Notes: generated from the letters alone by a model not told the origin. A DNA stretch of 64,000 bases from Eubacteriales bacterium (GCA_045603085.1 JAZULL010000033.1:2096-66095), one strand, 5' to 3'; shown: positions 2,090 through 31,820, numbered from the stretch's first letter. A program made the numbers and translations.

Positions 2090-2140
2090 TTTAGTAATAT
2101 TTACTCAACCGCCGTGCGGCGGAGATTGAGGAGGTTTACC

Positions 2141-8100: not shown

Positions 8101-11100
8101 GGATTCCAACTGTACCGATCCCGTGTTTACGCTCAAGCAGGGTGATAGGATCCTGCCTGCCACACAGGAAGTCAACGGCAGGGCATGCACCTTTGTGGTA
8201 TCTTCCGAGCATCTGGTTCCCAACCGGCCCATTTGTGCTACCATTACGGTTCGCCATGGCGAGGAAGTTCTGGAAATGACCAAGACGCTGAATATTAACG
8301 TCAATAAGTTCGATTTCAGCAAGAATGACGTGAATACGGATGCGTCTTCCGAATTCAAGATGTCCGATCTGCCCAATTGGCTGGAGGCGATCGTAAACTC
8401 CGGCTCGCTGGAATTCAAGGTTAATGACAGCGTTAAGCTTGGCATGGACATTGAATTGACCGAGTCCGAGGTGCTGATTTCGATTGACGCCGATTTCTCA
8501 AAAACCTTCCAGACCTCCGTGCCCTTGAAGGACGCGAAGGCGGGCTATGAGAAATACTACAAAAATGGCAAGGGAACGTATTTCTTTAGGATCATAGATC
8601 TTGAAAAGGGATTGACGTATGCCATTCGCTTCGCGCCTTCCGCGCAGGATACGTATACGTATTACCGTCTGCAGGTATATCCCACGGCGCTTGGCCGTCC
8701 TACCAAAGCAGATGACAAGTCTGTGGTTTACGGTGCGTTCAACGAGAGTAAGTTCATGCAATCGCTTCCTGAAGGAAGAATCAAATATGAAGCGAAGGCT
8801 TATGTGATCAAGACTGCTGCAAGCCTGTGGCTTACGGAAAACGGGAAGGACAGTCCGACACAGTTCCTGAATGGAAAAACCGTTGACTTAACCGGATTTA
8901 AGGCGCCCTACGAGGAATATGCCCGTCCCAAGGACAAGTATTCCACGGATCTGACACAAAAGTTTGGCCTGAATATTGGCGGACAGTTGGCGCTGGGTTA
9001 CAGCGGGGAAGACGGCTTGACCGTTAAGTCCGGTAAGATCTACGGCTATATTACCTATCAGTTAGAGCACAACATCTACTTCTCTATCGGTGTGGTGCCT
9101 GTTGTTCTGACCATAGAATTGAACGGTAAGGGCGGCGTTGTTGCCACGCTTGCTCCGGATACGTCCGGAAAGTGGAGCTTCCGGGATCTTGCGCTCAGGG
9201 CAGAGGTAGATATAGAAGTCTCCTTTGGACTGAACCTGGCCATTGCGTCGGGAGGCATTTACGGTAAGCTCGGCTTTGTCGTGAATTACGTGATCTTGCC
9301 GGAAGAAAACATGACCGAGCTGGCATTCAGTGGCGAATTGGGCGTGTACGTCAAGGTTTGGCATTTCAAATATAGGCTATCTATCTTTAAAGGAACGTAC
9401 GATTGCTTGACGGGAAATTGGGACAAGGAGCATATCTGGGATAGATTCAACGCGTCTCTATACATGCCGGAGCTGTACGAATACGGGGAAGACTGCAATA
9501 TAGATGCAAGACTTGCGTATATTGACGGCGAGCTGTACCAGTTCTACTTTGCTTCCGTAACCGATGCGCAGTACGACCAATACAATTCTACCAAGCTGAT
9601 GTATTCGGTATACGACGCAACCGAGGATACGTGGAGTGAGGGTGTGCCGGTGGACGACAACGGCTATACCGATACAAGCTATATTGTGTACCGACATGAC
9701 GGTCGCGTTTACGTTGCATACACCCAGCAGACCAAAAAGCTGGATGAAAACAGCGCAAACGATACGTATCAGACCTGCGAGGGTCTTTCCCTGAAGTGTA
9801 TTGAGGTTACTGAGATGCTGAACGGCGCACAGCCCGATACCGTATTGGATGGCAAGGCTTCTCCCGAGTATAAGTACCTGCTGCAGATCGGCAGCATGAA
9901 CGGCGCGCCGATCGTGGTTTGGGCAGAAAATGCCGATAATAACGTCTTCGGTACGTCTCCCGATAACTATTACGACGAGCAGACCGGAGAGTCCTACGTA
10001 TTTGAAACGACTGCAAACTCTATTCATTATGCAAAATTGGAAAACGGCGTTTGGGTAGAGCAGGAATACGTGATTGACGGCCTTTCCTCCGTAACCGACA
10101 TGGCGCTTGACGGAAGCATGCTGTACTACGTGATCGATACCGACGCGGACCTGGCAGACAACGCCGACAGCGTGCTGTACTGCGTGGATCTGGCTGACGG
10201 CAGCCATACGACGACAACTGTCAGCGGCGTTTCCTCTGTGGAATGCACCGATGGCAACGTCACCTACTATTATGCAAACGAGTCTTGCCTTGCAAGCCCC
10301 GATCAAGAGCTGGCTTTGCCCATGCAGGGCAAATTCTCCGCAGGCTATTTGCCTCTGACCGATGCAAACGGTGATCTGATCGCCATGATCTATCAGGGCT
10401 CCAAGAACTGGGAGAAGGACGGTAAGACCGAGACCTGCTCTGTGATGTACGCAGTATTTAACGAGAACGGCACGTGGGGTGCGCCTGTCGAGATTTATTC
10501 TCCCGATCAGGCAGACCGCTACGTTACAGGCTACGATGCGATTCGTTTGACCGACGGCCGCTTGATGCTGGCAATGCAGATCTGCGATGCAGACGGCAAT
10601 ACGGTCGATCACGTTACGGAGTTCTACGATCCCGACAAGGTCAATTTCGATTATACTTACGAGATCGATTATGAAAATCAGCAGATCCTGTATACCGTAA
10701 CCAACTTGGGCGGTCAGTCTGCAAGCTTCTCGCTTGAGCGTGGCGAATCTGCCACCGTTGCATCGGGTGAGAGCGCTGTGCTGGTCTACCAAATGGATAA
10801 GAGGGTGGGAGACACCGAAGCAACGCTTAAGGTCAGAGCGTCCCGCGACGGCGTAGTGCTCCGGACCCTGGAGAAGGGAACCGTTTCCACTGCTTACGTG
10901 GATCTGGTGCCTCTGTCCAAGCAGCTGGTCATCGGTGAGAATAACACCATGCTGATCGGCGTTCGCAATTACGGTAACATCACGTCCAAGGGTGGAACGC
11001 TCTACATCCTTTCGGGAGAAATTGCGTCTGAGTACGTGCTTGATGCTCAAAGAGAGCAAAAGCTGATCGAAAGTGCCATTTACAGTGTCGATTTGCCCGA

Positions 11101-14100
11101 GATCGGTGCAGGTCGTCTGGCATATTTTGAACTGCAGCTGGATGAGAGTCTGGTTACGGGCGGCGACGGTGTCATTTCGATGTTCGTTGTGCCCAATGGC
11201 GATGAGCCTCAGGCTTGCATTGAAAACAACCTGGATGCAATCTATCTGGACGAAATTACACAAACCACCTACGGTGAGCAGCCCGAGCCCGTTGAACCTG
11301 CTCCCGAGCTCTCCCTGACGTTGGACACCTTCTATAAGTACAGCGAGGAACAGCCTGTGCCGGCGGTTGGCATTGACGTCACGGTCATTGGCAAGAATAC
11401 GGGAGATATCAGTCTGATGCTGGGAGACACCCTGCTGACACCCGGTGATCTGACCGGTGAGGGTCAAAACGATTACGGTATCGTGGAGCACGGCACTTAC
11501 AGCCGTACGCTGCGCATCCGTCCCGAATATCTCAACGGTCTTGAGGTGGGCGAGCATACCTTTAAGGTAATTGTTGGCGGTGTTGAGCTGCTCTTCACGG
11601 TCAACGTAAAGGAATTCGAGATTAAGCAACCGGTTACTTACGAGGTGAAGTTCGTTTACGCCGATGGCGAAAAGATCTTCACTCTGCCCACCGAGCAAGA
11701 GGAGTACGCCGCGTTCTTTGATTCGATTCCCCGGGGTTCGGATCAATTCCTCGGTTGGGACAGCGATAACGACGGTCAACCCGATGAATTTTCTTATGCG
11801 GAAAAGGAAACCGTATATACTGCACTTTACAGGCAGGAGCTTGTTACGTACGTGGTGACTTGGGTACTGGCTGACGGCTTGAACGTCACCAAGTCGTATG
11901 CCGAGGGAAGCATTCCCGTATGTCCGCAGACCAGCTATAAGGGGCAGGTGATCCGCGGTTGGACAACGGCCGAGGGAGAGACGGTGGATCCGATTCCTGC
12001 CGTCAACGGACCTGCGACCTATTATGCGGTATATGACGCAAAGGTCAACACACTTTTGCTGATCGGTTCTCCCACTGTCGGAGGAGCGCTGCAGGCAGAT
12101 CTTGCCTCTATCGGTTGGGAAGAGCTGACCGACCTGAAGTATCAGTGGTATCTGGACGGCGTTTCCATCACCGATGCCGACAAGGATACGCTTGACGTGC
12201 TGGGTGAGATGAAGGGTAAGACAGTGTGGCTGATCGTGACCGACAGCGAGGGCAGAATGGCGCAGTCTGAGCCTCTTGAGGTTTCCACACACGCGCATAC
12301 CATGTTTTTCTATGCCTACACCGCACCGTCCTGTACGGTCGGCGGCAACGTTGCATATTGGTTCTGTCCCGTTTGCGACATTTGCTATCTGGATGCAGAT
12401 TGCATCAAGCAGATTGGTGCCGATCAGGTATGGCTGGCACCCATAGGTCACAAATATTATGACGTGGTAACGGATCCGACCTGCCTGAGTCAAGGCTACA
12501 CCACGCATACGTGCAAAAACTGTGATCATACAGTGATCGACACTTACATTGAGGCTACGGGCCATAGCATGAGCGATTGGGCAGAGATCAAGCCTGCAAC
12601 CTGTACCGAAAACGGTCTGGAGGCCAGCAAGTGCGAGCATTGCGACTATAGTGAAACCCGTGTGATCGATGCGCTCGGCCACGCTTATGAAGCCGATTGG
12701 ACGGTAGACGTTGAAGCTACGTGCATTTCTGCGGGCAGTAAGTCGCGTCATTGCACACGATGCGCTGCGGTTACCGACGTGACAGTAATCGAAATTCAAC
12801 CTCACTCTTTGTCCGAATGGGCAGAGAGCAAGACGGCAACCTGTACCGAAAACGGTCTGGAAACCCGCAAATGCGAGCAGTGTGATTATAACGAGACTCG
12901 TGTGATCGAGGCCCTTGGTCACGATTACAGTGACGAGTGGACGACAGACCTTGAGGCAACCTGCATTTCTGCAGGCAGCAAGTCGCATCACTGTACACGT
13001 TGTGATGCGGTTACCGATGTGACCGTGCTTGAAATCCTGCCGCACAGGCTGAGCGAGTGGACGCTGGATAAGGCACCCACCTGCACTGAGAACGGTATTG
13101 AGACGCGCCAATGCACCAATGGCGATTACTGCAGCTACAATGAAACTCGTATAATTGATGCACTGGGCCACGAATATGAGTCCCACTGGACGGTAGACGT
13201 TGAAGCCACTTGTATTTCTGCAGGAAGCGAATCCCGTCATTGCGAGCGCTGTGATGCAGTCACCGACGTACAGCTTGTTCCCATTACCGAGCATTCGATG
13301 AGTGAATGGAGGAGCACTAAGGAAGCTACTTGCACTCACACCGGTCTGGAATATCGTGAATGCGCATATTGCCCTTATAACGAAACTCGTGTGATTGCGG
13401 CACTTGACCACAAGTATCAAGCTGAGTGGACGGTAGACGTTGAGGCTACCTGCACCTTTGCAGGCAGCAAGTCGCATCATTGCGAGCGCTGTGATGCAGT
13501 AACCGACGTCACGGTCATTCCGATCCTTGACCATGAAATGAGCGTTTGGGCTGAGACTAAGCCGGCAACCTGCACCGAAAACGGTCTGGAGTACCGCAAA
13601 TGTGCGCATTGCTCTTACAATGAGACGAGAACGCTTGAAGCGCTTGGTCATAACTTTGCAGAGGAATGGACGGTAGACGTTGAAGCCACCTGCACCTCTG
13701 CAGGCAGCAAGTCCCGCCACTGCGTGCGCTGCGATGCGACTGCAGACGTGCAGAGCATTGCGCTTACCGAACACAGATATGACGGCGGTAAGGTGACCGC
13801 ACCTGCCGAGCCTGACCGCGAGGGTATCAGAACGACAACTTGTCTGGATTGCGGATATGCTTATACCGAAAGCATTGAAAAATCTGCACCCGAGATGGTT
13901 GAACAGTCTGCTACGGTTTGGAATTCCTGGTCCAAGAAGGATGAGCTGGTATTCCGCTCCAATGCCGCTTTCGAGGATTTCGTAGAGCTGAGAATCAACG
14001 GAGAGGTTGTCCCTGCGGATTGCTACACTGTGATCAAGGGTAGCATTAAGATTGTGATGGATCCCGAGTACGTGGCATCGCTCCAGAACGGCGACTATAC

Positions 14101-14269
14101 GGTGGATATCGTATCCAAGAACGGTGTTGCTTCCTCTACCTTCAAGGTGGAAAAGAAGACCGTCACGAATCCTTGGTTTGCGGTATGCTGTGTTTCCGGC
14201 ATGACTCTGCTGGCTGTTGCGGCAGGCTTTGTGCTCGCGATCATTCGCAAGCGTCGCGGCTTGCAATAA
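2141..14269 (+). CDS. Giant (~4040 aa) multidomain cell-surface protein: signal peptide, GLUG-like head, BspA-type LRRs, beta-rich central region, Listeria-Bacteroides (Flg_new-like) repeats, Cys-rich tandem modules, C-terminal TM anchor
   Basis: GAGGAGG RBS before the ATG at 2141, so the track start at 2114 (GTG) was trimmed. Signal-like N-terminus MKHSFLTRLTSALFAVLMVFTAIPA. GLUG-like YLGLLGY...GSFAGYNAGKVLNCY. Many AFxxCxxLxSIxIPxxVxxIGxxAF repeats (LRR_5/BspA type). YEVKFVYADGE...FLGWDSD...YTALYRQ repeats. Terminal hydrophobic helix followed by RKRRGLQ. Confidence 0.9.
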   Translation: MKHSFLTRLTSALFAVLMVFTAIPATILTVWGEAMDGFGDYLAEQAPEKDNVTTFIYTAEDLDNIRNDLDGFYILMNDIDLSGREWVPIGDKDHPFTGTLLGSSYIISGMTISNLEGIAPASDGFYYLGLLGYHTGVIRDLVLESSVTADVSGKNAYVGSFAGYNAGKVLNCYDNMTKVYDLDTYTGDKNLTVGDCHTIMLKGSGGTYTGYTITVAETAFSGVTIILRDVNLTNCTIKASGNVDADVCIISYGTSNSISGVANSTTQTHAATVNLPKSKVSVLGSAPLDVYGGNGSTSTSLGVSHPGLMALVASDLYVKMDGCILTLCGGSGGRGLARTSSSLSTSTTFAALSALVCGGQGTRAIRTSSIIAVSEVDLSSGDGGTGGLFNYKIFGSSYLKIGGNGGNTVEPVDLSKTTIVGKARLFVGLPGRSGQGSFGMDGIREASWTEKTIDTVSGTVYTTDLNGKMTEETTEIVEPVMPAQPIYGYHTPNAAATLNLTRWDRTSSNYTQGSAGMTEYEGALYYGPAENPYAVLVRWIATERTICEIHPDTEYIYTGAFYVVNDSGVHVENRLTTVEIPKSVDAIGKAAFYRCKRLTSVVAKDVLVDVGREAFAECTSLTSVEWKDAPEKPLIDLGRYEKKYLDLTYNDQGELRLGYGVFAGCTSLTSIRIPEGVTEIPAMAFRGATKLQSVDFAESTTVIWREAFAGCERLEAADLGKMSALTAIKDHAFDGCTSLKSIYIPGTVQTIGEDVFENCSELERIEGQADAVYYPVIDHCLYEIDDPEAAEDARTYTLIKGCENSLITQHPEFLNDADADGFNVITVSGVRKHAFYNVDFNAPIAVPKNVVLEDDAFVNCSGEIIILPTTYNVNGFKNCDAGSLFTYSEPTADNQYRILLDGQLGESVYYIVYANKIDAEAVILVYGIGATYDYAVHKTIENDKILITSAVFDAQGKELPKALLSEELARDGTEIQVMGYVPKYLVIRDGVETIGTSVFYGMEPYLESIQLGEGLKKISAKAFDFTHGSTIALRNVTFEGDCPQIDQDAFLFHHSATALSELLVFTYDQDAAGWTYNGMPYTYYVEGQGLVTQKPDDPSARCFMVTGSENINYVNTAGYDKYGIQYALLGEEQYVDQGGKTKTVLTAQVIGYKATANGDKTIQIPHKILMNGNFYYVVSVAQDAFKDNTVLEQITIQTDVTADFIEDGESYGFDGVSSIHSGAFANCSALLYFVGDKLATLDEDAFTGVDYIVVNPATETHGWSTVIGQSTNVYTSRVLSGYTDADGIYYTVDLKNRTAIVGKKSDNSEESIANTSMSKKANVVIPEFVTYNDRLYKVVGFDRYAFYNNKSLESITISRFIGEGQTEAAPAIWDCTFRNTENLWQILVDYDNKYYQADGSMLLGNPLQAGEDQTIFTRLIKYPEGDNRPTLIVPDQVTVIENYAVAGNAYLKCVRLDDVTVVGSHAFWNCTNLDTLEGDYQLHDIGDSAFENTALKGIKFTDALATIGTRAFYNTDLEGTVELSAYAVQIGDSAFGRCSEITDFKFVDFGSGHPWPNNYDNSYWTVDGVLFGYTLTNSGTRVKTLLQYPASDTSKTDYDMSALAEDTVPVAIATEAFWGSKYLTKIRMHDRTALVGSQAFANCNRLTYVKLGADYRGSGDETTGQAGVFSYNLFVDSPALEEIEVAEQNQYFCHDSNGVLFSKALDVLYCYPAAVQRVNYRVPASVTKVYDSAFYGNTNIKQIVFNTTEPLSIGSRAFGSCSSLTEVYYITETVPTVGEKIYDNTPMRLQTLFKEEFQTRGWAAAVANSKWCERNIAAYRTIGTVPNATLKTNDYLLNLVGTDGAPLQDVYVIVTTYVESDLIDAWVPHKFYLHTDENGQVVFSTLDSDAQVRADIHVYAQKEGYFPYDYDLYIDTDMLISYLTLTKEPDVFGVSCEDRDIQSQTIDLNLQLRLEECGVTSFVNGEFITQDAETTYSDIPITVLGFWDSNCTDPVFTLKQGDRILPATQEVNGRACTFVVSSEHLVPNRPICATITVRHGEEVLEMTKTLNINVNKFDFSKNDVNTDASSEFKMSDLPNWLEAIVNSGSLEFKVNDSVKLGMDIELTESEVLISIDADFSKTFQTSVPLKDAKAGYEKYYKNGKGTYFFRIIDLEKGLTYAIRFAPSAQDTYTYYRLQVYPTALGRPTKADDKSVVYGAFNESKFMQSLPEGRIKYEAKAYVIKTAASLWLTENGKDSPTQFLNGKTVDLTGFKAPYEEYARPKDKYSTDLTQKFGLNIGGQLALGYSGEDGLTVKSGKIYGYITYQLEHNIYFSIGVVPVVLTIELNGKGGVVATLAPDTSGKWSFRDLALRAEVDIEVSFGLNLAIASGGIYGKLGFVVNYVILPEENMTELAFSGELGVYVKVWHFKYRLSIFKGTYDCLTGNWDKEHIWDRFNASLYMPELYEYGEDCNIDARLAYIDGELYQFYFASVTDAQYDQYNSTKLMYSVYDATEDTWSEGVPVDDNGYTDTSYIVYRHDGRVYVAYTQQTKKLDENSANDTYQTCEGLSLKCIEVTEMLNGAQPDTVLDGKASPEYKYLLQIGSMNGAPIVVWAENADNNVFGTSPDNYYDEQTGESYVFETTANSIHYAKLENGVWVEQEYVIDGLSSVTDMALDGSMLYYVIDTDADLADNADSVLYCVDLADGSHTTTTVSGVSSVECTDGNVTYYYANESCLASPDQELALPMQGKFSAGYLPLTDANGDLIAMIYQGSKNWEKDGKTETCSVMYAVFNENGTWGAPVEIYSPDQADRYVTGYDAIRLTDGRLMLAMQICDADGNTVDHVTEFYDPDKVNFDYTYEIDYENQQILYTVTNLGGQSASFSLERGESATVASGESAVLVYQMDKRVGDTEATLKVRASRDGVVLRTLEKGTVSTAYVDLVPLSKQLVIGENNTMLIGVRNYGNITSKGGTLYILSGEIASEYVLDAQREQKLIESAIYSVDLPEIGAGRLAYFELQLDESLVTGGDGVISMFVVPNGDEPQACIENNLDAIYLDEITQTTYGEQPEPVEPAPELSLTLDTFYKYSEEQPVPAVGIDVTVIGKNTGDISLMLGDTLLTPGDLTGEGQNDYGIVEHGTYSRTLRIRPEYLNGLEVGEHTFKVIVGGVELLFTVNVKEFEIKQPVTYEVKFVYADGEKIFTLPTEQEEYAAFFDSIPRGSDQFLGWDSDNDGQPDEFSYAEKETVYTALYRQELVTYVVTWVLADGLNVTKSYAEGSIPVCPQTSYKGQVIRGWTTAEGETVDPIPAVNGPATYYAVYDAKVNTLLLIGSPTVGGALQADLASIGWEELTDLKYQWYLDGVSITDADKDTLDVLGEMKGKTVWLIVTDSEGRMAQSEPLEVSTHAHTMFFYAYTAPSCTVGGNVAYWFCPVCDICYLDADCIKQIGADQVWLAPIGHKYYDVVTDPTCLSQGYTTHTCKNCDHTVIDTYIEATGHSMSDWAEIKPATCTENGLEASKCEHCDYSETRVIDALGHAYEADWTVDVEATCISAGSKSRHCTRCAAVTDVTVIEIQPHSLSEWAESKTATCTENGLETRKCEQCDYNETRVIEALGHDYSDEWTTDLEATCISAGSKSHHCTRCDAVTDVTVLEILPHRLSEWTLDKAPTCTENGIETRQCTNGDYCSYNETRIIDALGHEYESHWTVDVEATCISAGSESRHCERCDAVTDVQLVPITEHSMSEWRSTKEATCTHTGLEYRECAYCPYNETRVIAALDHKYQAEWTVDVEATCTFAGSKSHHCERCDAVTDVTVIPILDHEMSVWAETKPATCTENGLEYRKCAHCSYNETRTLEALGHNFAEEWTVDVEATCTSAGSKSRHCVRCDATADVQSIALTEHRYDGGKVTAPAEPDREGIRTTTCLDCGYAYTESIEKSAPEMVEQSATVWNSWSKKDELVFRSNAAFEDFVELRINGEVVPADCYTVIKGSIKIVMDPEYVASLQNGDYTVDIVSKNGVASSTFKVEKKTVTNPWFAVCCVSGMTLLAVAAGFVLAIIRKRRGLQ
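12563..13771 (+). repeat. Five in-frame tandem repeats (240, 240, 249, 240, 240 nt) encoding Cys-rich ~80-aa modules inside the giant gene
   Basis: Unit starts at 12563, 12803, 13043, 13292 and 13532, each beginning at a His codon. Consensus: H.MSEWAE.K.ATCTENGLE.RKCE.CDYNETRVI.ALGH.Y...WTVDVEATC.SAGSKS.HC.RCDAVTDVTV. Half-units flank both sides. Confidence 0.9.
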
Positions 14270-14466: not shown

Positions 14467-14498
14467 AGGACAGAGAACGAAAACATTCTCTGTCCTTT
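14467..14498 (+). terminator. Second hairpin/terminator candidate
   Basis: AGGACAGAGAA-cgaaaaca-TTCTCTGTCCT followed by TTG. Confidence 0.4.
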
Positions 14499-14599
14499 GC
14501 CTGTTTGCAGGAGTACGCTGCTCTATTACGAACACGCCTTCAGGTGGGTGAAAAAAGAGCAATATTCATAAAAAATCGCAATAATTTTGCGGGAAACTC

Positions 14600-14628
14600 T
14601 TGCAACTTGTCAAATGCGGTGCTATAAT
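14600..14628 (+). promoter_or_regulatory. Promoter of vWA paralog 1
   Basis: TTGCAA (14600-14605), 17-nt spacer, TGcTATAAT extended -10 (TATAAT at 14623-14628). Confidence 0.7.
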
Positions 14629-14685
14629 GTGGGGAATGATTAGCAAATCAGTCATTTTAGTTTGCTTTATTTTAGGAGGTTTATT

Positions 14686-15375
14686 ATGGCAGTTAAACAG
14701 GCTTCGGGTTATAACATTGACGTTGTGCTTTGCATTGATAAAACGGGCAGTATGGCCCCCATTATTTATGAGTTTCAGCGCAACGCGCTGAACTTTTACA
14801 AAATGGTTACGAATGAAATGGATGCTTGGGATCATAGCGTTAACGCGCTACGCGTCAAGGTGATCGGCTTTGGTGACTACGACAGTGATAACCGACCCAT
14901 GATGATCTCAAAGTTCTTTACGCTTCCCGATGAAAGCAATGAGTTTGAGGCTTTCCTGAACGGTATCAATGCCGGGGGCGGCGGAGATGCTCCCGAAAAT
15001 GCATTGGAAGCTCTGGCACATGCAATCAAGTCGGATTGGACTGAGGACGGCATCTATCGCAGACACGTGATTATGATGTTTACCGATGCCCCTGCACTTA
15101 AGCTGGGTGCACGCACCAACTTTGAAAACGACGACGAGCGCATTCCTATGCCTGCAGATCTTGTCGAGCTTGGCGAATGGTGGGAAGAAATGGAATTCAA
15201 GGCAAAGAGATGCGTTTTGTTTGCACCCGACTGCTATCCTTGGGGTGACCTGGCTGTTAATTGGGAGAATGTGGGAGGTATTCCCGTGGGCGTAGGCACA
15301 GGTTGCGATGATATTGATCTTGATGATGTAAGCAGGATGCTGATTCGCTCAGTTACTCAGGGTTTTCTATGGTAA
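14686..15375 (+). CDS. vWA/MIDAS-domain protein, paralog 1 (TerY-like role in a vWA-PP2C-kinase module)
   Basis: AGGAGG RBS before the ATG at 14686; track start trimmed. Motifs: DVVLCIDKTGSM (DxTxS MIDAS-like), GGGDAPENALEALAHAI, VIMMFTDAP. By eye, high identity (roughly two-thirds or more) to paralog 3. Confidence 0.85.
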   Translation: MAVKQASGYNIDVVLCIDKTGSMAPIIYEFQRNALNFYKMVTNEMDAWDHSVNALRVKVIGFGDYDSDNRPMMISKFFTLPDESNEFEAFLNGINAGGGGDAPENALEALAHAIKSDWTEDGIYRRHVIMMFTDAPALKLGARTNFENDDERIPMPADLVELGEWWEEMEFKAKRCVLFAPDCYPWGDLAVNWENVGGIPVGVGTGCDDIDLDDVSRMLIRSVTQGFLW

Positions 15376-15591
15376 GTGAGTATTAATCTCAACAGTTAAA
15401 TATCCAGTATCTTGAAAGAAAGGCACCTTGCTTGTGCATTTTGTGATTTGCGTGTGCGAGGAGCCTGCTTTTTCGAATAGGAACAGGAAAGCGGATTCGG
15501 AAAAATGAAAAGCGGAAGCGTTGAAAAGCAGAGCCGTATCACCCAGCCAATCCTTTGAAAACTCAAGGGTCTTCAGGTACTGTACTCTTTT

Positions 15592-15634
15592 GCACAGCCA
15601 ACCTGCTATAATGCAGGCTGGCTGTGCTTTTTTT
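15592..15634 (+). terminator. Rho-independent terminator downstream of vWA paralog 1
   Basis: GCACAGCCAACCTGC-tataat-GCAGGCTGGCTGTGC with one mismatch, followed by TTTTTTT. Confidence 0.7.
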
Positions 15635-15685
15635 GTTATTTGCCACTTGTTTTTCATATTTTGCCAATATTCAAACGACTGTTAC

Positions 15686-15714
15686 TTGCACTATGTGAAA
15701 TTTTGTGTTATACT
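15686..15714 (+). promoter_or_regulatory. Promoter of vWA paralog 2
   Basis: TTGCAC (15686-15691), 17-nt spacer, TGtTATACT (TATACT at 15709-15714). Confidence 0.65.
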
Positions 15715-15765
15715 GGCAATAATATCCCAAATCAATTGGACTTGTTTATCAAGGAGGATTTTTAT

Positions 15766-16458
15766 ATGACTACCGAAACAACAAAAGATGTCGGATATGT
15801 TATCGACGTTGCTTTGTGCGTTGACAAAACCGGTGCGAATATTCCGGTTTGGATTATGCTTGAGCAAAATGCGGAGCGCATGTATGAAAAGCTTTCCGAA
15901 GCGTGTCATTGCAACGGTCGCAGGATTGATTCGTTTCGGGTCAGGATTTTTGCTTTTGGGGACTACGCGGTTGATCTGCGCCCCATGATTATCTCTCGGT
16001 ATTTTAAGTTTCCTGAGGAGATCAAGGAATTTGTTGAGTTCTGCTTCAACGTGGAAGTGTTTGGTGGAGGGGATGTGCCTGAAAATGCGCTGGAATCACT
16101 GGCACATGCGATCAAGTCCGACTGGACCGATGAGGGGACCGTTCGCCGGCACGTGATCATGCTCTTTACCGACGCTCCGGCGGTGGAGCTCGGAGAGCGC
16201 CCGGATTTTTCAATAGATGACGAGCCGATGGACATGCCAAAAGATCTGAGCGAGCTTGGAGAATGGTGGAAAGAACTGGATAGAGAGAGCAAGCGCTTGC
16301 TGATATTTGCTCCCGAGGACTATCCTTGGCCTGAAATCGCAGCAACGTGGGATCAGGTTGAGTGGACATCGGTCTATGAAGGTCAAGCTTTTCAGGATTT
16401 TGATTTTGACAAAGCGATTGCCGCATTGAGCAAAGCTGTATGTCAAGCAGGAGAATAA
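15766..16458 (+). CDS. vWA-domain protein, paralog 2 (divergent; MIDAS serine lost)
   Basis: AAGGAGG RBS before the ATG at 15766. DVALCVDKTGAN replaces DKTGSM. GGGDVPENALESLAHAIKSDWT and VIMLFTDAP are conserved. By eye, clearly lower identity (around half) to paralogs 1 and 3. Confidence 0.85.
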   Translation: MTTETTKDVGYVIDVALCVDKTGANIPVWIMLEQNAERMYEKLSEACHCNGRRIDSFRVRIFAFGDYAVDLRPMIISRYFKFPEEIKEFVEFCFNVEVFGGGDVPENALESLAHAIKSDWTDEGTVRRHVIMLFTDAPAVELGERPDFSIDDEPMDMPKDLSELGEWWKELDRESKRLLIFAPEDYPWPEIAATWDQVEWTSVYEGQAFQDFDFDKAIAALSKAVCQAGE

Positions 16459-16485
16459 TCGGTCGTGGCCTCTTTACATGATGAT

Positions 16486-16593
16486 TACGGATATCCTTGG
16501 GATGACCTTGTTATTGTGTGTGAAACCGCAGCCGGCGTTCAGACCGATTATGCAGGAGGATTGTACGAAATGAATTTTGACAGCATGGTTTGA
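16486..16593 (+). pseudogene. 3'-terminal fragment (~35 codons) of a fourth vWA paralog
   Basis: The DNA acggAtatccttgggatgaccttgTtAtt matches paralog 3 at 17421-17450 at 27 of 30 positions. It translates to YGYPWDDLVIVCETAAGVQTDY..., compared with NGYPWDDLAVAWEDVTVVPSAAGTGCEDV in paralog 3. Stop codons lie immediately upstream in this frame. Confidence 0.6.
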
Positions 16594-16786
16594 TTTGTCT
16601 CGGGAAAGACATTCGTTGGAGCCTGTCATTTTGGATATAGTATGGATCCATGGAATGATCTTTCTCAATGGAGAGATCGTTAACATATTTCCGTGTGTGT
16701 TTCACAGGATTCTGCTTTTGCAGAATTTCCTGAAAATCCGAGTGTATTTTTTTGACAAATTGTAACCAAAAATTTTTGTTTGGTAC

Positions 16787-16815
16787 TTGCATTTTGTCTA
16801 AATTGGTGATATAAT
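16787..16815 (+). promoter_or_regulatory. Promoter of vWA paralog 3
   Basis: TTGCAT (16787-16792), 17-nt spacer, TGaTATAAT (TATAAT at 16810-16815). Confidence 0.7.
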
Positions 16816-16871
16816 GAACATAATGATTGGACAATCATAATAATTGATTTACTTATTAGGAGGATTTTGCT

Positions 16872-17567
16872 ATGCCGATTGGAAATCAGGGAGGACTTAT
16901 TTATAACGTTGATATCGTAATGTGTATCGACAAAACCGGTAGTATGGCACCTATTTTGGGTACAGTAAAGACAAACGCTCTCGACATTTACAAGAAGTTC
17001 GAGACTGCTATGAACAATGAGGGTAAGAGAGTTGAAGAGCTCCGCATTAAGGTAATTGCCTTTGGTGATTACGATTGCGACACACGCCCCATGATGATTT
17101 CGAGATTCTTTACTCTTCCTGAAGAGAATGACGAGTTCGAGGCTTTCCTGAACGGTGTTAATGCAGAGGGTGGTGGAGATGCTCCCGAGAACGCTCTTGA
17201 GGCTCTTGCACACGCAATAAAGTCCGACTGGACCGAGGATGGTAACGTTCGCAGACACGTTATCATGCTGTTTACCGACACTTCCGCTCTGGAGCTTGGT
17301 GTTCGCACCAACTTTGAAAACGACGATGAGCGTATGCCCATGCCCGCAGACCTGGCTGAGCTTGGCGACTGGTGGGATGAGATGGAATCCAGAGCAAGAA
17401 GATTCGTTCTGTTTGCTCCCAACGGCTATCCTTGGGATGACCTTGCTGTTGCTTGGGAAGACGTGACCGTTGTGCCCTCCGCTGCAGGTACCGGGTGCGA
17501 GGACGTTGATATTGATACCGCAATCGAAGCACTTGTTCGTTCTGTGGGTAAGGCTACTGTACAGTAA
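16872..17567 (+). CDS. vWA/MIDAS-domain protein, paralog 3
   Basis: AGGAGG RBS. Motifs: DIVMCIDKTGSM, GGGDAPENALEALAHAIKSDWTEDG, VIMLFTDTS. Confidence 0.85.
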   Translation: MPIGNQGGLIYNVDIVMCIDKTGSMAPILGTVKTNALDIYKKFETAMNNEGKRVEELRIKVIAFGDYDCDTRPMMISRFFTLPEENDEFEAFLNGVNAEGGGDAPENALEALAHAIKSDWTEDGNVRRHVIMLFTDTSALELGVRTNFENDDERMPMPADLAELGDWWDEMESRARRFVLFAPNGYPWDDLAVAWEDVTVVPSAAGTGCEDVDIDTAIEALVRSVGKATVQ

Positions 17568-17615: not shown

Positions 17616-17667
17616 AAAAGCTCCTCGCTATGCGTTGTATTGATCCGCATATTGCGGGGAGCTTTTT
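17616..17667 (+). terminator. Terminator/attenuator-like hairpin between vWA paralog 3 and the PP2C gene
   Basis: AAAAGCTCCTCGC...(25-nt loop containing an inner hairpin)...GCGGGGAGCTTTTT. 13-bp stem with one mismatch, then a T-run ending ~30 nt before the PP2C start codon. Confidence 0.5.
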
Positions 17668-17695
17668 GATAGTGGCAAATAACAAGGAGATTAAA

Positions 17696-19798
17696 ATGGA
17701 CTGTAATGTGCAAGAACATTTTTTGAAACTGTTTTGTGGCGGACGAGGAAATAACAATCCCGAGGATGCCCAGCCGATAGTAGAAGACAATTTCCTGCTG
17801 GTGGCGGATGGCCTTGGCGGTTCGGGTGGCTTTTCTCATGCCCAGCTGAAGCCTGAAGCGATGCAGGCAGATGCTTTTTTTGATACCGTGTTTTCGGACA
17901 TCTTTTCTAATTTGTCCGAAGAAGATTTTGCTCGCGTAAAGACGTATGCGGAAACCTCTTTGGAGTCGTATTTGGCATTGGACTACGAAGCAAAGACCGA
18001 TCGTCGCTGTATTTATACAAGCGGTTATTTTGCTTCCAGATTGGTCAGCACCCTGATGTTCGGCTATTTGCTTGAGATAGGCAAGGACGGAGTGGCGGAA
18101 ATTATTGAGGAATTTGCACAGCAGGCGGATAATTATGCGGAATTAAAGCGCAAGAATTCCGAGCGCTTTACCGAGATGGTTCGTAACAGATTAGTGCAAG
18201 TAGCGAACAATGGAAATTTCGTCAAGGAAACGAAAAATATCAGTAAGAGCATGCTCTTGTTACCGACCACGTTGGTCACTATGTTGTATCTGGAACGGGA
18301 GAACCACGTTGACGTAGTGTTCCTGTGGGCAGGAGATTCTCGCGGCTATTCCTGGGATAAGAATGGCCTTTTGCAGATAACAAATGATCACGAAACCGAT
18401 GGAGTGATGTATAACCAAATCAATTTGTCCGGCGGTTTTTATATTGAATGCGCATATCAACGCATTGCTAAGCCTTGTATGCTGTTCTGTACGTCGGACG
18501 GTTGCTATACCTGCATGTCCGCTCCGCTGGAATTTGAGTATTACTTCTTTGATCAGTTTCGTCAGGCAAATTCGTACGAAGAAGCTACCAAACTGTTGAT
18601 CAAGCTGTATGAGGATAATTCCCAGGACGATGCGAACACGGTTGCCATGCGTGTGTTTGGATATGACTCTTACGATCAACTCAAAGCCGATATTGCCGGA
18701 CGAGTAGATGCGATTTATGAGGAATATACCGGTGAGCTTCCTGAAATCTTCATCACAAATTTCGATGTGGAAAAGGTCACGGCAAAGAAAAAGATCAATC
18801 TTGTTGCAAAGAACCTCAATCCCGAGGAGCATCCGTGGCTTGCTTCGTATCTTCGGGGAACGCTTGGCCGGGATTCTGCCGAGGAAATACAGGCCAAATG
18901 TGCCGAGCGTGATCAGCGCATGAATGCATGCCGTGAGCAATTAACCGCTCTTGCAAAAACACATTATTGGAGTCTGGTTGAATACGTCGTGTCACATCAG
19001 ATCCGGGCAGATTGCTATAATGCACAGGATTATCAGCAATATCAGAAGGTGCAAAGAGATCTCGAATTGAAAAAGGAAATCTTCGAAGATACCCTCGATA
19101 AAATCTTTGAGGAATTGAAGAGCGGTGTCGAGGCGGCTGAAAAGGCGCTGTCGGAGATGAAGAATCTGGCTGATCCGCAACCGCATAAAACCCCCGCGAT
19201 TAACAACCTCAAGTTAGAGGTGGATTGGTTGGTTTCTGTAAGATCTAACAAGAACAAGAACAACGCCAAATCTTCTCTTAAAAAGGAAGAAATTGTGCTT
19301 CCCCTGCAACAGTGTCCCGCAGAGTGGGTTAGTGGCCATTGTAGCGAGATCGCAAAACTCAACAAGAGCTTGGCGAAATACCGTGATCAATACGCCGGCG
19401 AACACCCTGCATATCTGAAGTGTATTGTGGAGCTTTTGATCAATAAGGATATCAGCACAGAAGCTTTTGCAGCTCTTGATGTTGTTTCGCAGGCGGATCA
19501 GTTGGTGAATGAGTTTGTGGAGCTCGGTGCGATGCAGATACGAGAGGCAATAGAGATGCAGCACAAGGAGCTTGCACAGCAGTACTGGATTAAGAATCGC
19601 GTAGAGGTTCTTGCCGAGCTGTATGCGGATAATCCTGACGCACCGTTCTGGCAGGAATTTGATCAGTCCTTTGTTACGGCTCTTGCCAATTACTGTGCAG
19701 CCTGTGCGGCGATGAAGTTGAGAGATCAGCTTTATGACAGATATAACAGTTATTATTTTAGCAAACAGGAGGTAGTGCAGAATGCTCAGACGGTATAA
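17696..19798 (+). CDS. PP2C-family Ser/Thr phosphatase (N-terminal ~370 aa) fused to a ~330-aa helical C-terminal region of unknown function
   Basis: AAGGAG RBS before the ATG at 17696; track start 17600 trimmed. PP2C motifs in order: EDNFLLVADGLGG, WAGDSRGY, ITNDHE, CTSDGCY, DDANTVAM. I recognise no motif in the C-terminal half, which is coiled-coil-like. Confidence 0.8.
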   Translation: MDCNVQEHFLKLFCGGRGNNNPEDAQPIVEDNFLLVADGLGGSGGFSHAQLKPEAMQADAFFDTVFSDIFSNLSEEDFARVKTYAETSLESYLALDYEAKTDRRCIYTSGYFASRLVSTLMFGYLLEIGKDGVAEIIEEFAQQADNYAELKRKNSERFTEMVRNRLVQVANNGNFVKETKNISKSMLLLPTTLVTMLYLERENHVDVVFLWAGDSRGYSWDKNGLLQITNDHETDGVMYNQINLSGGFYIECAYQRIAKPCMLFCTSDGCYTCMSAPLEFEYYFFDQFRQANSYEEATKLLIKLYEDNSQDDANTVAMRVFGYDSYDQLKADIAGRVDAIYEEYTGELPEIFITNFDVEKVTAKKKINLVAKNLNPEEHPWLASYLRGTLGRDSAEEIQAKCAERDQRMNACREQLTALAKTHYWSLVEYVVSHQIRADCYNAQDYQQYQKVQRDLELKKEIFEDTLDKIFEELKSGVEAAEKALSEMKNLADPQPHKTPAINNLKLEVDWLVSVRSNKNKNNAKSSLKKEEIVLPLQQCPAEWVSGHCSEIAKLNKSLAKYRDQYAGEHPAYLKCIVELLINKDISTEAFAALDVVSQADQLVNEFVELGAMQIREAIEMQHKELAQQYWIKNRVEVLAELYADNPDAPFWQEFDQSFVTALANYCAACAAMKLRDQLYDRYNSYYFSKQEVVQNAQTV

Positions 19799-21176
19799 AC
19801 TGTTGGGCGAATGGAAATCGTCAACGGGCGGCCTGACGACTTTCGCTGAGAAGGGCGGCCACAAGTATTTTTTAAAAAAATACGATGCTCCGATTCGTCC
19901 CACGCATGATCAGGTCGAATCCGGCGTTTTAACCGAGAAAAAGTATCAACGCGGATTGGAGCGATTCAATCGCTTTTACGCTCTGCGTTCCGACATTAAT
20001 AATGCTCTTCGTTCCATGGCTTGCGCAGGCGGCAATATCATTTGCCCGCTGGAGTGGGGAATTGATGACAATAAGTTTGTTGAGGCAACAGAATACGTCC
20101 CCGAGCTTTTGGAAAGAGGAGAAGTCGAACGTCTGTCGGATAAAGACAAGGTCATGGTTTTGATGACGGCGATTGGCGCACTGGTAACGGTGCACAAGCA
20201 GGATATCATTCACGGAGACTTGAAATATACCAACATTGCGGTCGCAAAAAACAGTATGGGCTTCTATGTGGGTAAGTTGATTGACTTTGACTGCAGCTAC
20301 TTTTGTTCCAAAAAGCCCCCGGATTTGGGTGGAGACCAGATCTATATGTCCCCCGAGTTGGGCTTTTGTTGGTTGAATGAAATGAGTCCCGATTGCATTG
20401 CGCAGGTCGACTTCAAATCTGATATTTTCTCGCTGGGTGTTCTATTCCATGAATATATGACCAGACAGCGTCCCGAAATGGGAAGGATTCCCGAGGAAAT
20501 GGCGGGCAAGGATCCCGAATTGATTTATTATTGGGAATACGTTTTGTATGGCGGCGAACCTCAGGTCAGCAGAAAGATCAAGAACAAACGCCTTGCAAAC
20601 TTGATTGTGAGCATGCTGCAGCTTGATCCGACCAAGAGACCAACAGCGCAGGAAACACTTGCTGAGCTCAAACTGGTCAGAGATGAACTGTCCGGAAAAA
20701 TCAGTACAACACCGCCGCCTCCTGCACCGCCTAAGCCTGCACCGGCAGCCCGCACTTTCGAAGATCCTTGGCCCGAGCACGGCATTGTATATGATAAGGC
20801 AGCACTTGAACGCATGAAATTTGTTGGCGGCAAGAGAGCCGAGATTGCCGGAAAAAAGTGCTATGAATTCTACAGAGAAGGCGGAACCAAACATCCATAT
20901 AACTTGGACCGTCTTCTCAGCACCGGACTTGCGAAGCGCGCCGGTGCGACACCTCCTCCGCCCCCTCCCGCTACACCTGCGAGTGGTTTTGCCGAGCCTT
21001 GGCCGGAGCATAACATTGAATTTGTTCAGGCAGAAATCAATCGATTGAAGTACGTAAGCAGTACCCGCATCGAGGTGATGGGCAAAAAGGCTTATGAGTT
21101 TGCCAGAGCCAGCGGTACCAAGCATCGCTATACCAAGGAAAAGGCATTGGCCGAAGGCCTTGCAAAGAACAAATAA
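19782..21176 (+). CDS. Hanks-type Ser/Thr protein kinase with two C-terminal ~65-aa PWPEH repeats
   Basis: AGGAGG lies 8 nt upstream, and the start overlaps the PP2C stop by 17 nt. Motifs: YFLKKY (Lys), HGDLKYTNIAV (catalytic loop), DFD (DFG variant), YMSPE (APE variant). Then PPPPAPPKPAPA-[repeat]-ATPPPPPPATP-[repeat]. Confidence 0.85.
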   Translation: MLRRYKLLGEWKSSTGGLTTFAEKGGHKYFLKKYDAPIRPTHDQVESGVLTEKKYQRGLERFNRFYALRSDINNALRSMACAGGNIICPLEWGIDDNKFVEATEYVPELLERGEVERLSDKDKVMVLMTAIGALVTVHKQDIIHGDLKYTNIAVAKNSMGFYVGKLIDFDCSYFCSKKPPDLGGDQIYMSPELGFCWLNEMSPDCIAQVDFKSDIFSLGVLFHEYMTRQRPEMGRIPEEMAGKDPELIYYWEYVLYGGEPQVSRKIKNKRLANLIVSMLQLDPTKRPTAQETLAELKLVRDELSGKISTTPPPPAPPKPAPAARTFEDPWPEHGIVYDKAALERMKFVGGKRAEIAGKKCYEFYREGGTKHPYNLDRLLSTGLAKRAGATPPPPPPATPASGFAEPWPEHNIEFVQAEINRLKYVSSTRIEVMGKKAYEFARASGTKHRYTKEKALAEGLAKNK

Positions 21177-21181
21177 AAAAG

Positions 21182-21571
21182 AAAAAGGACACGCAACTTT
21201 GGCGTGATACTCTTATCGGAGTATCACGCTAAGTTATGATTGCCCATGCGGGCAAGTTATGAGTTATGATTGGCTACGCCAAGTTATGAGCGACTACGTC
21301 GCGTGAAAGGGATGCGAGGCAATCATATCATAACGTTTGCGATAGCAAACTCATAACGGTTCGCTAAATTGCAAGGCAATTTAGCGAACCTCATAACTCT
21401 AAACTGAAAAGCAGAAAAAAGAGAGAACAATGCGGCTATCAAACCGATTTGCTCTCTCTTCTGTTTTTATCGCCAGTCTCGCATTTGTATTACAAATGCA
21501 TCAGGCTATGCCCATACCCTTATTTTATTTCTCCGATAAGGACAACACCCTTTTTGTTGCGTGTCCTTTTT
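21182..21571. repeat. Hairpin-array intergenic element (copy B) bracketed by a 16-bp perfect inverted repeat
   Basis: AAAAAGGACACGCAAC (21182-21197) pairs with GTTGCGTGTCCTTTTT (21556-21571). Inside are four AGTTATGA words (21232, 21255, 21262, 21282) and three TCATAAC words (21328, 21351, 21391). These alternate with short palindromes: TTGCCCatgcGGGCAA, TTGGCtacGCCAA, GCGACtacGTCGC, GTTTGCgataGCAAAC, GGTTCGCTAAATTGCaagGCAATTTAGCGAACC. Confidence 0.8.
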
Positions 21572-31791: not shown

Positions 31792-31820
31792 TTGCATTTT
31801 CTTTTATATTGTGTTATAAT
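31792..31820 (+). promoter_or_regulatory. Promoter of prfC
   Basis: TTGCAT (31792-31797), 17-nt spacer, TGtTATAAT (TATAAT at 31815-31820). Confidence 0.65.

Follow-up and report, generated by a model that had tools for sequence, protein, structure and literature searches.

The locus considered here lies in a window of 64,000 nucleotides from a Eubacteriales bacterium (GCA_045603085.1, JAZULL010000033.1:2096-66095), where the window is the whole stretch of DNA that was analysed and positions are counted from its first letter. Three genes (par1, par2 and par3) for small proteins with a von Willebrand factor A (vWA) domain stand in tandem on one strand, all with intact open reading frames (ORFs), and are followed by the genes of a PP2C-like phosphatase and a Ser/Thr protein kinase. 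An earlier note on this DNA had proposed that the three vWA genes are separate transcription units, duplicated as cassettes of promoter plus gene, and that the middle copy has lost a serine of its metal-ion-dependent adhesion site (MIDAS) and acquired a changed role. The reading that we regard as probable is that the locus is a TerY-P-type module of vWA, PP2C-like and kinase genes whose vWA gene has undergone tandem amplification. The five genes are as follows.

14686-15375, + strand: par1, vWA protein of 229 aa with intact MIDAS (D18-x-T20-x-S22, D..PE, D); from ORF, Pfam and alignment
15766-16458, + strand: par2, divergent vWA protein of 230 aa; from ORF and alignment
16872-17567, + strand: par3, conservative vWA copy of 231 aa, adjoining the enzyme genes; from ORF, Pfam and an AlphaFold2 (AF2) model
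17696-19798, + strand: PP2C-like phosphatase, 700 aa, whose C-terminal half is long and helical; from weak PP2C matches and motifs, with no promoter of its own found
19782-21176, + strand: Ser/Thr protein kinase of 464 aa, overlapping the phosphatase gene by 17 nt; Pkinase match at 4e-19

The spacers between par1 and par2 and between par2 and par3 measure 390 and 413 bp, in accordance with the approximate lengths of 390 and 410 bp given earlier, and an AGGAGG ribosome-binding site is present 5' of each of the three ATG codons, also as described. The protein sequences of par1 and par3 are 65-67% identical, and par2 is 45-50% identical to either of them, so that the described closeness of the outer copies and the far greater divergence of the middle one are borne out. 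With a gathering cut-off of 27 bits, the Pfam families VWA_4 (PF25106) and VWA_2 (PF13519) recognise par3 at 38.7 and 33.2 bits and par1 at 36.3 and 28.8 bits; the score of par2, 20.4 bits, is under the cut-off, yet its sequence aligns with par1 and par3 over the full length.

The phosphatase is matched weakly by PP2C_2 (E = 0.009), Stp1 (6.7e-8) and tPphA-like structures (E = 0.013), but the PP2C motifs ED, DGLGG, GDSRGY, SDG and DDANT are legible in its 700 residues, about 330 of which make up the helical tail. The C-terminus of the kinase, as read from its sequence, consists of two repeats of about 65 aa on polyproline linkers. A vWA protein, a PP2C phosphatase and a Ser/Thr kinase are thus encoded together, which is the TerY-P architecture, and among 94 loci the vWA gene is followed by a PP2C-like gene in 78 and by a kinase gene in 74, with the order kept.

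Models of known families add little to this. No PADLOC model matches any of the vWA copies or the phosphatase at E <= 0.1, although the TerY-P content of that library was not verified, and there is no TerY-P model among the 25 best PADLOC matches of the kinase, the best of which are mad6, MkoA and PD-T4-6. Nor does any NCBIfam model match the vWA or the PP2C-like protein, and the classical TerY (IncHI2) gave no match in plasmids at E <= 1e-3. The zinc ribbon of TerY-P kinases was sought by reading the sequence, with no domain search on the tail, and no Cys-rich ribbon was seen in the kinase C-terminus. Because neither a profile model nor the TerY of IncHI2 gives a match, the likeness to TerY-P would be one of architecture alone, and membership of the TerY-P family is not supported by models.

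Copy number and divergence of the vWA genes

The genome to which the window belongs (2.68 Mb, 82% complete) holds these three vWA copies only. Among 151 same-family genomes, a full-length relative (38-41% identity) is present in five others and a weak partial match in two, in every case as one copy, and the search of a single further genome of the genus gave no vWA relative. The closest metagenomic relatives are loci (L010, L015-L018 and L020) with 62-70% identity to par3, each of which has one intact vWA gene, then a gene for a PP2C-like protein of 650-670 aa and then a kinase gene. In the comparison of copy number that had been suggested for related genomes, close relatives thus have one vWA gene, and three copies would be special to the lineage of the window.

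In the family tree, par1, par2 and par3 form one well-supported clade with seven close relatives. A tree constrained to group par1, par2, par3 and P0006, a protein that is 84% identical to par3 and encoded on a contig of 801 bp, is not rejected (p-AU 0.89), and its log-likelihood is 26.9 above that of the quick free search. When par2 is compared with 5.8 billion proteins, the best match is par3 itself, at 50%. From the single-copy relatives, the constrained tree and the search with par2 it follows that the triplication is, as far as sequences can tell, lineage-specific, and it would be older than the split from the organism that carries P0006.

Since the duplications, the three copies have changed at different rates. 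In Tajima's relative-rate test with the protein P0008 as outgroup, par2 has 72 unique changes where par3 has 8 (p = 8e-13), and par1 has 41 where par3 has 16 (p = 9e-4). Thus par2 evolves about nine times faster than par3, and par1 also evolves faster than par3. At 80 columns that are conserved in >= 90% of 117 relatives, the departures number 6 for par3, 16 for par1 and 31 for par2. The third-position identity profile of the paralogs gives no clear sign of gene conversion.

The loss of the last metal-coordinating serine from par2 is confirmed. The MIDAS motif reads DKTGSM in par1 and par3 and DKTGAN in par2, where Ala24 (codon 15835-15837) occupies a position that is Ser in 119 of 120 close family members (DxTxSM), with par2 as the sole exception. 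In the numbering of par3 the metal site is D20-x-T22-x-S24 ... D103-x-P-E106 ... D136; in an alignment of 35 sequences D20, T22, D103, E106 and D136 are invariant, and S24 is broken by par2 only. Five of the six MIDAS positions are accordingly retained in par2, together with the core motifs GGGDxPENAL, KSDWT, RRHVIM, FTDA and YPW.

To place par2 in a wider setting, consider the vWA family as a whole, which comprises 411 matches at E <= 1e-5 in a database clustered at 90% and 706 representatives at E <= 1e-30 in a library clustered at 50%, mostly from Clostridia and Bacilli of gut and rumen. Among 93 related loci with a full-length vWA copy (the window excluded), 15 have tandem arrays of 2-6 vWA copies, always before the enzyme genes and typically with one copy on a short branch and the others on long branches; the family thus appears to amplify its vWA gene repeatedly. 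A degenerate metal site occurs in 10 of 44 array copies and in 0 of 80 single copies (Fisher p = 1.5e-5), a contrast that is inflated by a scan seeded with intact motifs. In one array (L103) the first copy is intact and copies 2 and 3 read DATGGM; in another (L070) copy 1 reads DVTGAM and the last copy is strongly degenerate. Two further proteins (P0142 and P0143) are also without the same serine, and the first of them is the product of an orphan vWA gene (L104:7001-7714, DATGGM) with no phosphatase or kinase gene beside it. A rule by which degenerate MIDAS motifs are confined to arrays was for these reasons, the seeding of the scan and the orphan copy, downgraded. In about 165 domains from the 150 best representatives at 50% identity, the position in question is Ser in 130, Gly in 9 and Ala in 3. 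There are also fused proteins with two to seven vWA domains (P0208 with 1549 aa, P0145, P0146, P0147 and P0259), and several of these domains have degenerate metal sites.

What, then, is par2? One answer is that it is a decaying copy under relaxed selection, which heads towards a pseudogene and has no new function. Its very long branch with the 31 departures of 80, the lack of an ortholog elsewhere, the Pfam scores under threshold, and the relics in the window array and in L020 (below), which show that copies do decay, all fit this answer. Decay would, however, have to be reconciled with a full-length open frame behind a perfect ribosome-binding site and a good promoter, with the retained metal ligands and core motifs, and with the observation that the same single serine has been lost independently in other arrays while the other ligands were retained. 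The ratio dN/dS, which the earlier note had asked for, is also below 1 (0.17-0.24 among the paralogs by the NG86 method), with dS ranging from 1.4 to undefined and hence saturated, so that the values are unreliable and uninformative on selection. On balance we regard decay as unlikely, though it is a serious candidate. Of the sub- or neofunctionalisation that had been suggested for par2, what is borne out is that this copy is exceptional and fast-evolving; as to the kind of selection, new function and relaxed constraint are inseparable at these saturated sites.

A bolder answer is that selection maintains Ser-less copies like par2 as a class of regulatory or decoy subunits in vWA/PP2C/kinase switches, a reading that we hold to be doubtful. 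Here par2 would keep the fold and five of the six ligands, bind metal or ligand differently, and be expressed from a promoter that has lost the operator present at the other copies. If this were true, par2 would compete with the canonical vWA protein for kinase, phosphatase or effector and in this way tune or buffer the switch, and the recurrent independent loss of the serine would be parallel adaptation and not decay.

Promoters and the history of the cassettes

We now turn from the proteins to the sequences in front of their genes and between them, where the following features were found.

14600-14628, + strand: P1, promoter-like site TTGCAA-17-TATAAT with TG extension; score 12, -10 end 57 nt from the par1 ATG
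14636-14650, + strand: palindrome ATGATTAGCAAATCA, 8 nt 3' of the P1 -10, candidate operator; genome pattern search
15686-15714, + strand: P2, promoter-like site TTGCAC-17-TATACT with TG extension, without palindrome; pattern match, -10 end 51 nt from the par2 ATG
16487-16524, + strand: vWA relic, left from the 3' part of a copy now lost, reading ..GYPWDDL.. in the same frame as par2; 32 of 38 nt identical to par3 17422-17459
16593-16720, + strand: possible second relic, heavily deleted, with N-terminal and C-terminal pieces; marginal
16787-16815, + strand: P3, promoter-like site TTGCAT-17-TATAAT with TG extension; pattern match, -10 end 56 nt from the par3 ATG
16823-16838, + strand: palindrome ATGATTGGACAATCAT, 8 nt 3' of the P3 -10, candidate operator; genome pattern search

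The promoter string that had been reported before each paralog is exact at all three sites, with the -10 end 51-57 nt from the ATG. Exact matches to TTGCA-N15-TGnTATAMT are P1, P2, P3 and one site at 31792 before an unrelated gene, and shuffled sequences are expected to contain 0; the longer pattern CTTGCA..TGT..AA..GTGnTATAMTG occurs at the P1, P2 and P3 sites only. The window has, at the same time, >= 15 near-consensus sigma-A promoters with a spacer of 17 nt, and because of these the 'near-identical architecture' ascribed to the three promoters is largely the ordinary consensus of the organism. What remains of it when the consensus is set aside can be measured at 59 non-consensus positions, over all 120 pairs of 16 strong promoters in the window. 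The pair P1-P3 is 51% identical and ranks first; the 117 other pairs have a mean identity of 0.28 with a standard deviation of 0.07 and a maximum of 0.46, and P2 has an identity of 0.34 to P1 and 0.41 to P3.

P1 and P3 have more in common than their promoter strings. A palindrome of the form ATGATT-N3/4-AATCA(T) follows both in the same register, and the ortholog in L020 has the same element in the same register; P2 is without the left half. The pattern has only three occurrences in the whole 2.68-Mb genome. The third of them, which was considered as the sign of a regulon, was rejected as a chance match since it lies inside a 577-aa ORF on another contig. As RNA, the palindrome forms weak hairpins only, and the leader RNA has no Rfam family at threshold, its sole match having E = 0.29. 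For these two reasons we infer that a DNA operator is a more likely reading of the palindrome than an RNA element. A riboswitch or structured leader was dropped as a candidate, given that the leaders fold no better than shuffled sequences and belong to no Rfam family. Just upstream of the -35 there are, besides, small inverted repeats at P1 (CGCAATAATTTTGCG, 14577-14591) and P3 (ACCAAAAATTTTTGTTTGGT, 16762-16783), which are unlike in sequence.

Single-copy orthologs (L010, L018 and L020) also have extended -10 promoters, 78-81 nt 5' of the ATG, and family-wide a strong promoter-like site is present in 33 of the 108 upstream regions scored and in 2% of background pieces, its -10 end lying at a median of 62 nt from the ATG. 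Because single-copy orthologs carry a sigma-A-type promoter some 52-68 nt 5' of the ATG, it would follow that the promoter belongs to the ancestral vWA gene unit. P1 and P3, at least, look homologous, as judged from palindrome and non-consensus positions.

If the promoter was part of the ancestral unit, then each duplication would have carried it along. It may be asked whether instead the coding parts alone were duplicated, the promoters having arisen or been captured later and become alike by convergence on the sigma-A consensus. That the string also stands before the unrelated gene at 31792, that the P1-P2 identity of 0.34 is to be compared with a background of 0.28 +/- 0.07, and that most other arrays of the family have short, promoter-less spacers, would all be expected if this were so. 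So would the state of the cassette flanks, which, when aligned, do not match outside short elements; since synonymous sites are saturated in every pair of paralogs, neutral flanks are, however, not expected to align. Convergence does not account for a rare palindrome in the same register at P1, at P3 and in the L020 ortholog, nor for the first rank of P1-P3 among 120 promoter pairs, and there is a direct example in the family of whole cassettes, spacer included, that have been duplicated: a Lachnospiraceae metagenome-assembled genome (L070:2376-7563) has six tandem vWA genes in a recent array with a cassette period of 895-898 nt and stretches that are 100% identical from copy to copy. Convergence in place of cassette duplication is therefore judged improbable. 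The proposed duplication of promoter and gene as one cassette is supported by the lineage-specific duplication, the ancestral promoter and the likeness of P1 to P3, with P2 as the member for which homology is not demonstrable.

The spacers themselves hold traces of history. Eight codons past the par2 stop begins the relic at 16487-16524, which reads ..DYGYPWDDLVIV..AAG.. and has a score that 0 of 300 shuffles reach. The pieces of the possible second relic, 16593-16642 and 16646-16720, are marginal, their scores being reached by 19 of 500 and 17 of 500 shuffles. The spacer between par1 and par2 shows no detectable remnant of either a vWA gene or the 5' end of the phosphatase gene. A comparable remnant in the closest long ortholog locus is the 5'-truncated, frame-broken vWA pseudogene at L020:906-1472, between the intact vWA gene and a T3-like hairpin. 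The long spacers would then be at least partly the debris of lost copies, and from the relics in the window, the L020 pseudogene and the L070 cassettes together it would follow that arrays of the family grow by duplication of whole cassettes and shrink by deletion.

Terminators and predicted transcription

The transcription units predicted for the locus depend on where transcripts end as much as on where they begin. The hairpins of the locus are these.

14467-14496, + strand: hairpin behind the giant BspA-LRR gene, bounding the array on its upstream side; -30.6 kcal/mol, z = -5.1
15422-15473, + strand: T1a, weaker hairpin followed by the U-run TGCTTTTT; -17 kcal/mol, position matching the hairpin after par3
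15592-15634, + strand: T1b, strong intrinsic terminator (stem 15592-15627, then U7); -28.3 kcal/mol, z = -5.7
17616-17668, + strand: T3, long terminator or attenuator hairpin AAAAGCUCCUCGC..GCGGGGAGCUUUUU with U-run, between par3 and the PP2C-like gene; -33 kcal/mol, z = -5.1
21198-21233, + strand: terminator-like hairpin with a 16-bp stem, closing the module; -26 kcal/mol

The terminator that had been assigned to par1 is well supported by T1b, which none of 200 shuffles equals in folding. T3 has counterparts in the single-copy relatives L020, L018, L010 and L015, where hairpins are placed in the same way with stems that differ in sequence, and a hairpin with a U-run between the last vWA gene and the PP2C-like ORF is found in 30 of 72 distinct loci; for random pieces the count is 22 of 216. 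T1a and T3 were compared as possible homologs, and the idea was rejected: their sequence similarity is not significant, and they have position and shape alone in common. Just after T1b and T3 there is a 15-nt exact inverted match, TTTGTTATTTGCCAC / GTGGCAAATAACAAA (15633-15647 and 17671-17685), with E = 0.001 in a small local database.

Hairpin folding of the spacer after par2 gave no convincing terminator, and because of this the 3' end of par2 probably does not close a unit of its own, with read-through predicted into par3. In the 28 nt from T3 to the ribosome-binding site of the phosphatase gene there is no promoter, and the best promoter score in the 200 nt upstream of that gene is 7.5. 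Sequence signals for a unit of its own thus exist for par1 (P1 with T1a/T1b) and for par3 (P3 with T3), and for par2 as a promoter only, which means that the proposal of three separate transcription units has predicted signals in its favour at the first and third genes and is doubtful for the second. The more informative regulatory feature would be the T3-type terminator, by which the vWA genes are, on this prediction, insulated from enzyme genes that have no promoter.

These pieces can be put together in the following scheme. The ancestral unit, as deduced from relatives, would begin with a sigma-A promoter and a leader of about 55 nt, after which come the vWA gene, a terminator-like hairpin, the phosphatase gene and the kinase gene. 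Having no promoter, the enzyme genes would rely on read-through, and such a design would give much vWA protein and little enzyme. Whole units would have been duplicated to at least four copies, whereafter deletions left three genes and spacer debris. Of the survivors, par3 would keep the ancestral sequence and probably the ancestral role, either as a partner that binds the kinase/phosphatase pair in a metal-dependent way or as its substrate; par1 would be drifting; and par2, because of its rapid evolution, its lost MIDAS serine and the missing operator-like palindrome, would probably be under different regulation and bind metal more weakly or in an altered way. P1 is predicted to transcribe par1 alone, P2 to transcribe par2 and to read on into par3, and P3 to transcribe par3, and the phosphatase and kinase genes are predicted to be transcribed solely by leakage through T3.

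That the five genes are instead one operon transcribed from P1, with internal promoter strings that are chance or vestigial and hairpins that serve as RNA stabilisers or processing sites, is very improbable: it would agree with the common strand, with the missing par2 terminator and phosphatase promoter, and with a consensus scan of the AT-rich intergenic DNA that gives 16 matches against 12 expected in shuffles, but not with an exact extended -10 string that is expected 0 times and yet stands 51-57 nt before three ATG codons, with the strength and U-runs of T1b and T3, or with promoters at the same place in single-copy orthologs.

Several of the results above weigh against the tandem-amplified TerY-P-type module and the scheme that goes with it. 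Homology of P2 to P1 and P3 is not demonstrable (0.34 and 0.41, and no palindrome). The three promoter strings are near the general consensus of the genome, and the same string occurs before an unrelated gene. Outside short elements the cassette flanks do not align. Saturated dS cannot separate relaxed from new selection on par2, and the association of degenerate copies with arrays is affected by ascertainment and has its counterexample in the orphan Ser-less copy. The vWA and phosphatase proteins, finally, are without a PADLOC or NCBIfam match, and the best matches of the kinase are not TerY-P.

Relation to known systems

Triads of vWA, PP2C and kinase genes are widespread in stress and defence islands. 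In the IncHI2 tellurite-resistance cluster, terY1, terY2 and terY3 are three vWA paralogs before one phosphatase/kinase pair; they are of ancient origin and conserved, and terX is interleaved with them. The copies in the window differ from them as a lineage-specific triplication with relics, and there is no sequence match; in the literature, a search for terY1-3 gave Trichodesmium locus tags as the only matches.

The TerY-P triad of a TerY-like vWA protein, a PP2C phosphatase and a Ser/Thr kinase was described by Anantharaman, Iyer and Aravind (2012), and stand-alone anti-phage versions by Gao et al. (2020), according to the summary of the two works in PMC11090510. The module in the window resembles it in having a small cytosolic MIDAS vWA protein followed on one strand by a PP2C-type phosphatase and a Ser/Thr kinase, and in that relatives of the module adjoin TerD and transglutaminase-like genes. 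It differs in its phosphatase, which has the helical tail of about 330 aa, in its vWA domain, which is of the integrin beta-I type with a D-x-P-E motif, and in its kinase: the kinases of TerY-P end in a zinc ribbon, or in an OB fold in defence versions (PMC11090510), whereas the kinase of the window, as read from sequence, ends in the two proline-linked repeats.

A parallel to the pairing of intact and degenerate metal sites is given by Type III-A CoCoNuT operons, which have a duplicated TerY-like vWA with one perfect and one degenerate MIDAS (Bell et al. 2024, PMC11090510). There, as here, the vWA gene is duplicated within the operon and one copy is MIDAS-perfect and the other degenerate. The internal CoCoNuT copy is, however, shorter and lacks the middle Thr, with an ATPase gene between the copies; the copy in the window loses the last Ser of DxTxS, has nothing inserted, and stands in no McrBC or CoCoNuT context.

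The assignment to the integrin beta-I type comes from structure prediction and profile comparison. For the AF2 model of par3 (mean pLDDT 90.5), the 50 best PDB matches are without exception integrin beta chains, with TM-scores of about 0.6 and 11-18% identity, and the sole PDB sequence matches of the family profile are integrin beta-8, in whose alignment DxSxSM pairs with the DxTxSM of the family and D-x-P-E with GGGDxPE. Pfam Integrin_beta (PF00362) is found on some relatives. As modelled, then, this cytosolic bacterial vWA family would be of the integrin beta-I type, and it is unlike the integrin beta I-like domain in that the protein of the window is cytosolic, of about 230 aa and single-domain, with no alpha-subunit partner.

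The locus, which belongs to a gut-type Clostridia genome, does not represent a new system: a module of known kind, vWA/PP2C/kinase, has been elaborated here within one lineage, and for this reason its value is illustrative. It offers three handles. The first is the conserved terminator between vWA and enzyme genes, which implies that vWA protein is in excess of enzyme; the second, the recurring expansion of the vWA gene into tandem arrays, in which one copy is conservative and the additional ones evolve fast; the third, the recurrent loss of one particular metal ligand in extra copies. The extra copies are natural variants with which the role of the vWA partner may be probed.

Some observations concern the neighbourhood. 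Around four related loci (L010, L013, L014 and L015) there are Transglut_core, TerD, Tubulin_2, TIR_2 and SUKH/Tox-GHH genes, a setting suggestive of conflict or defence islands. The window has no such neighbours; convergent hydrolase and ferredoxin-like genes lie downstream of the module there. Directly upstream of the vWA array stands the gene of a giant BspA-type LRR_5 protein of 4051 aa (window 2114-14269), and LRR_5 proteins are also encoded at L013:14032-16593 and L014:12502-15030, in these cases just downstream of the triad, past transglutaminase-like and TerD genes.

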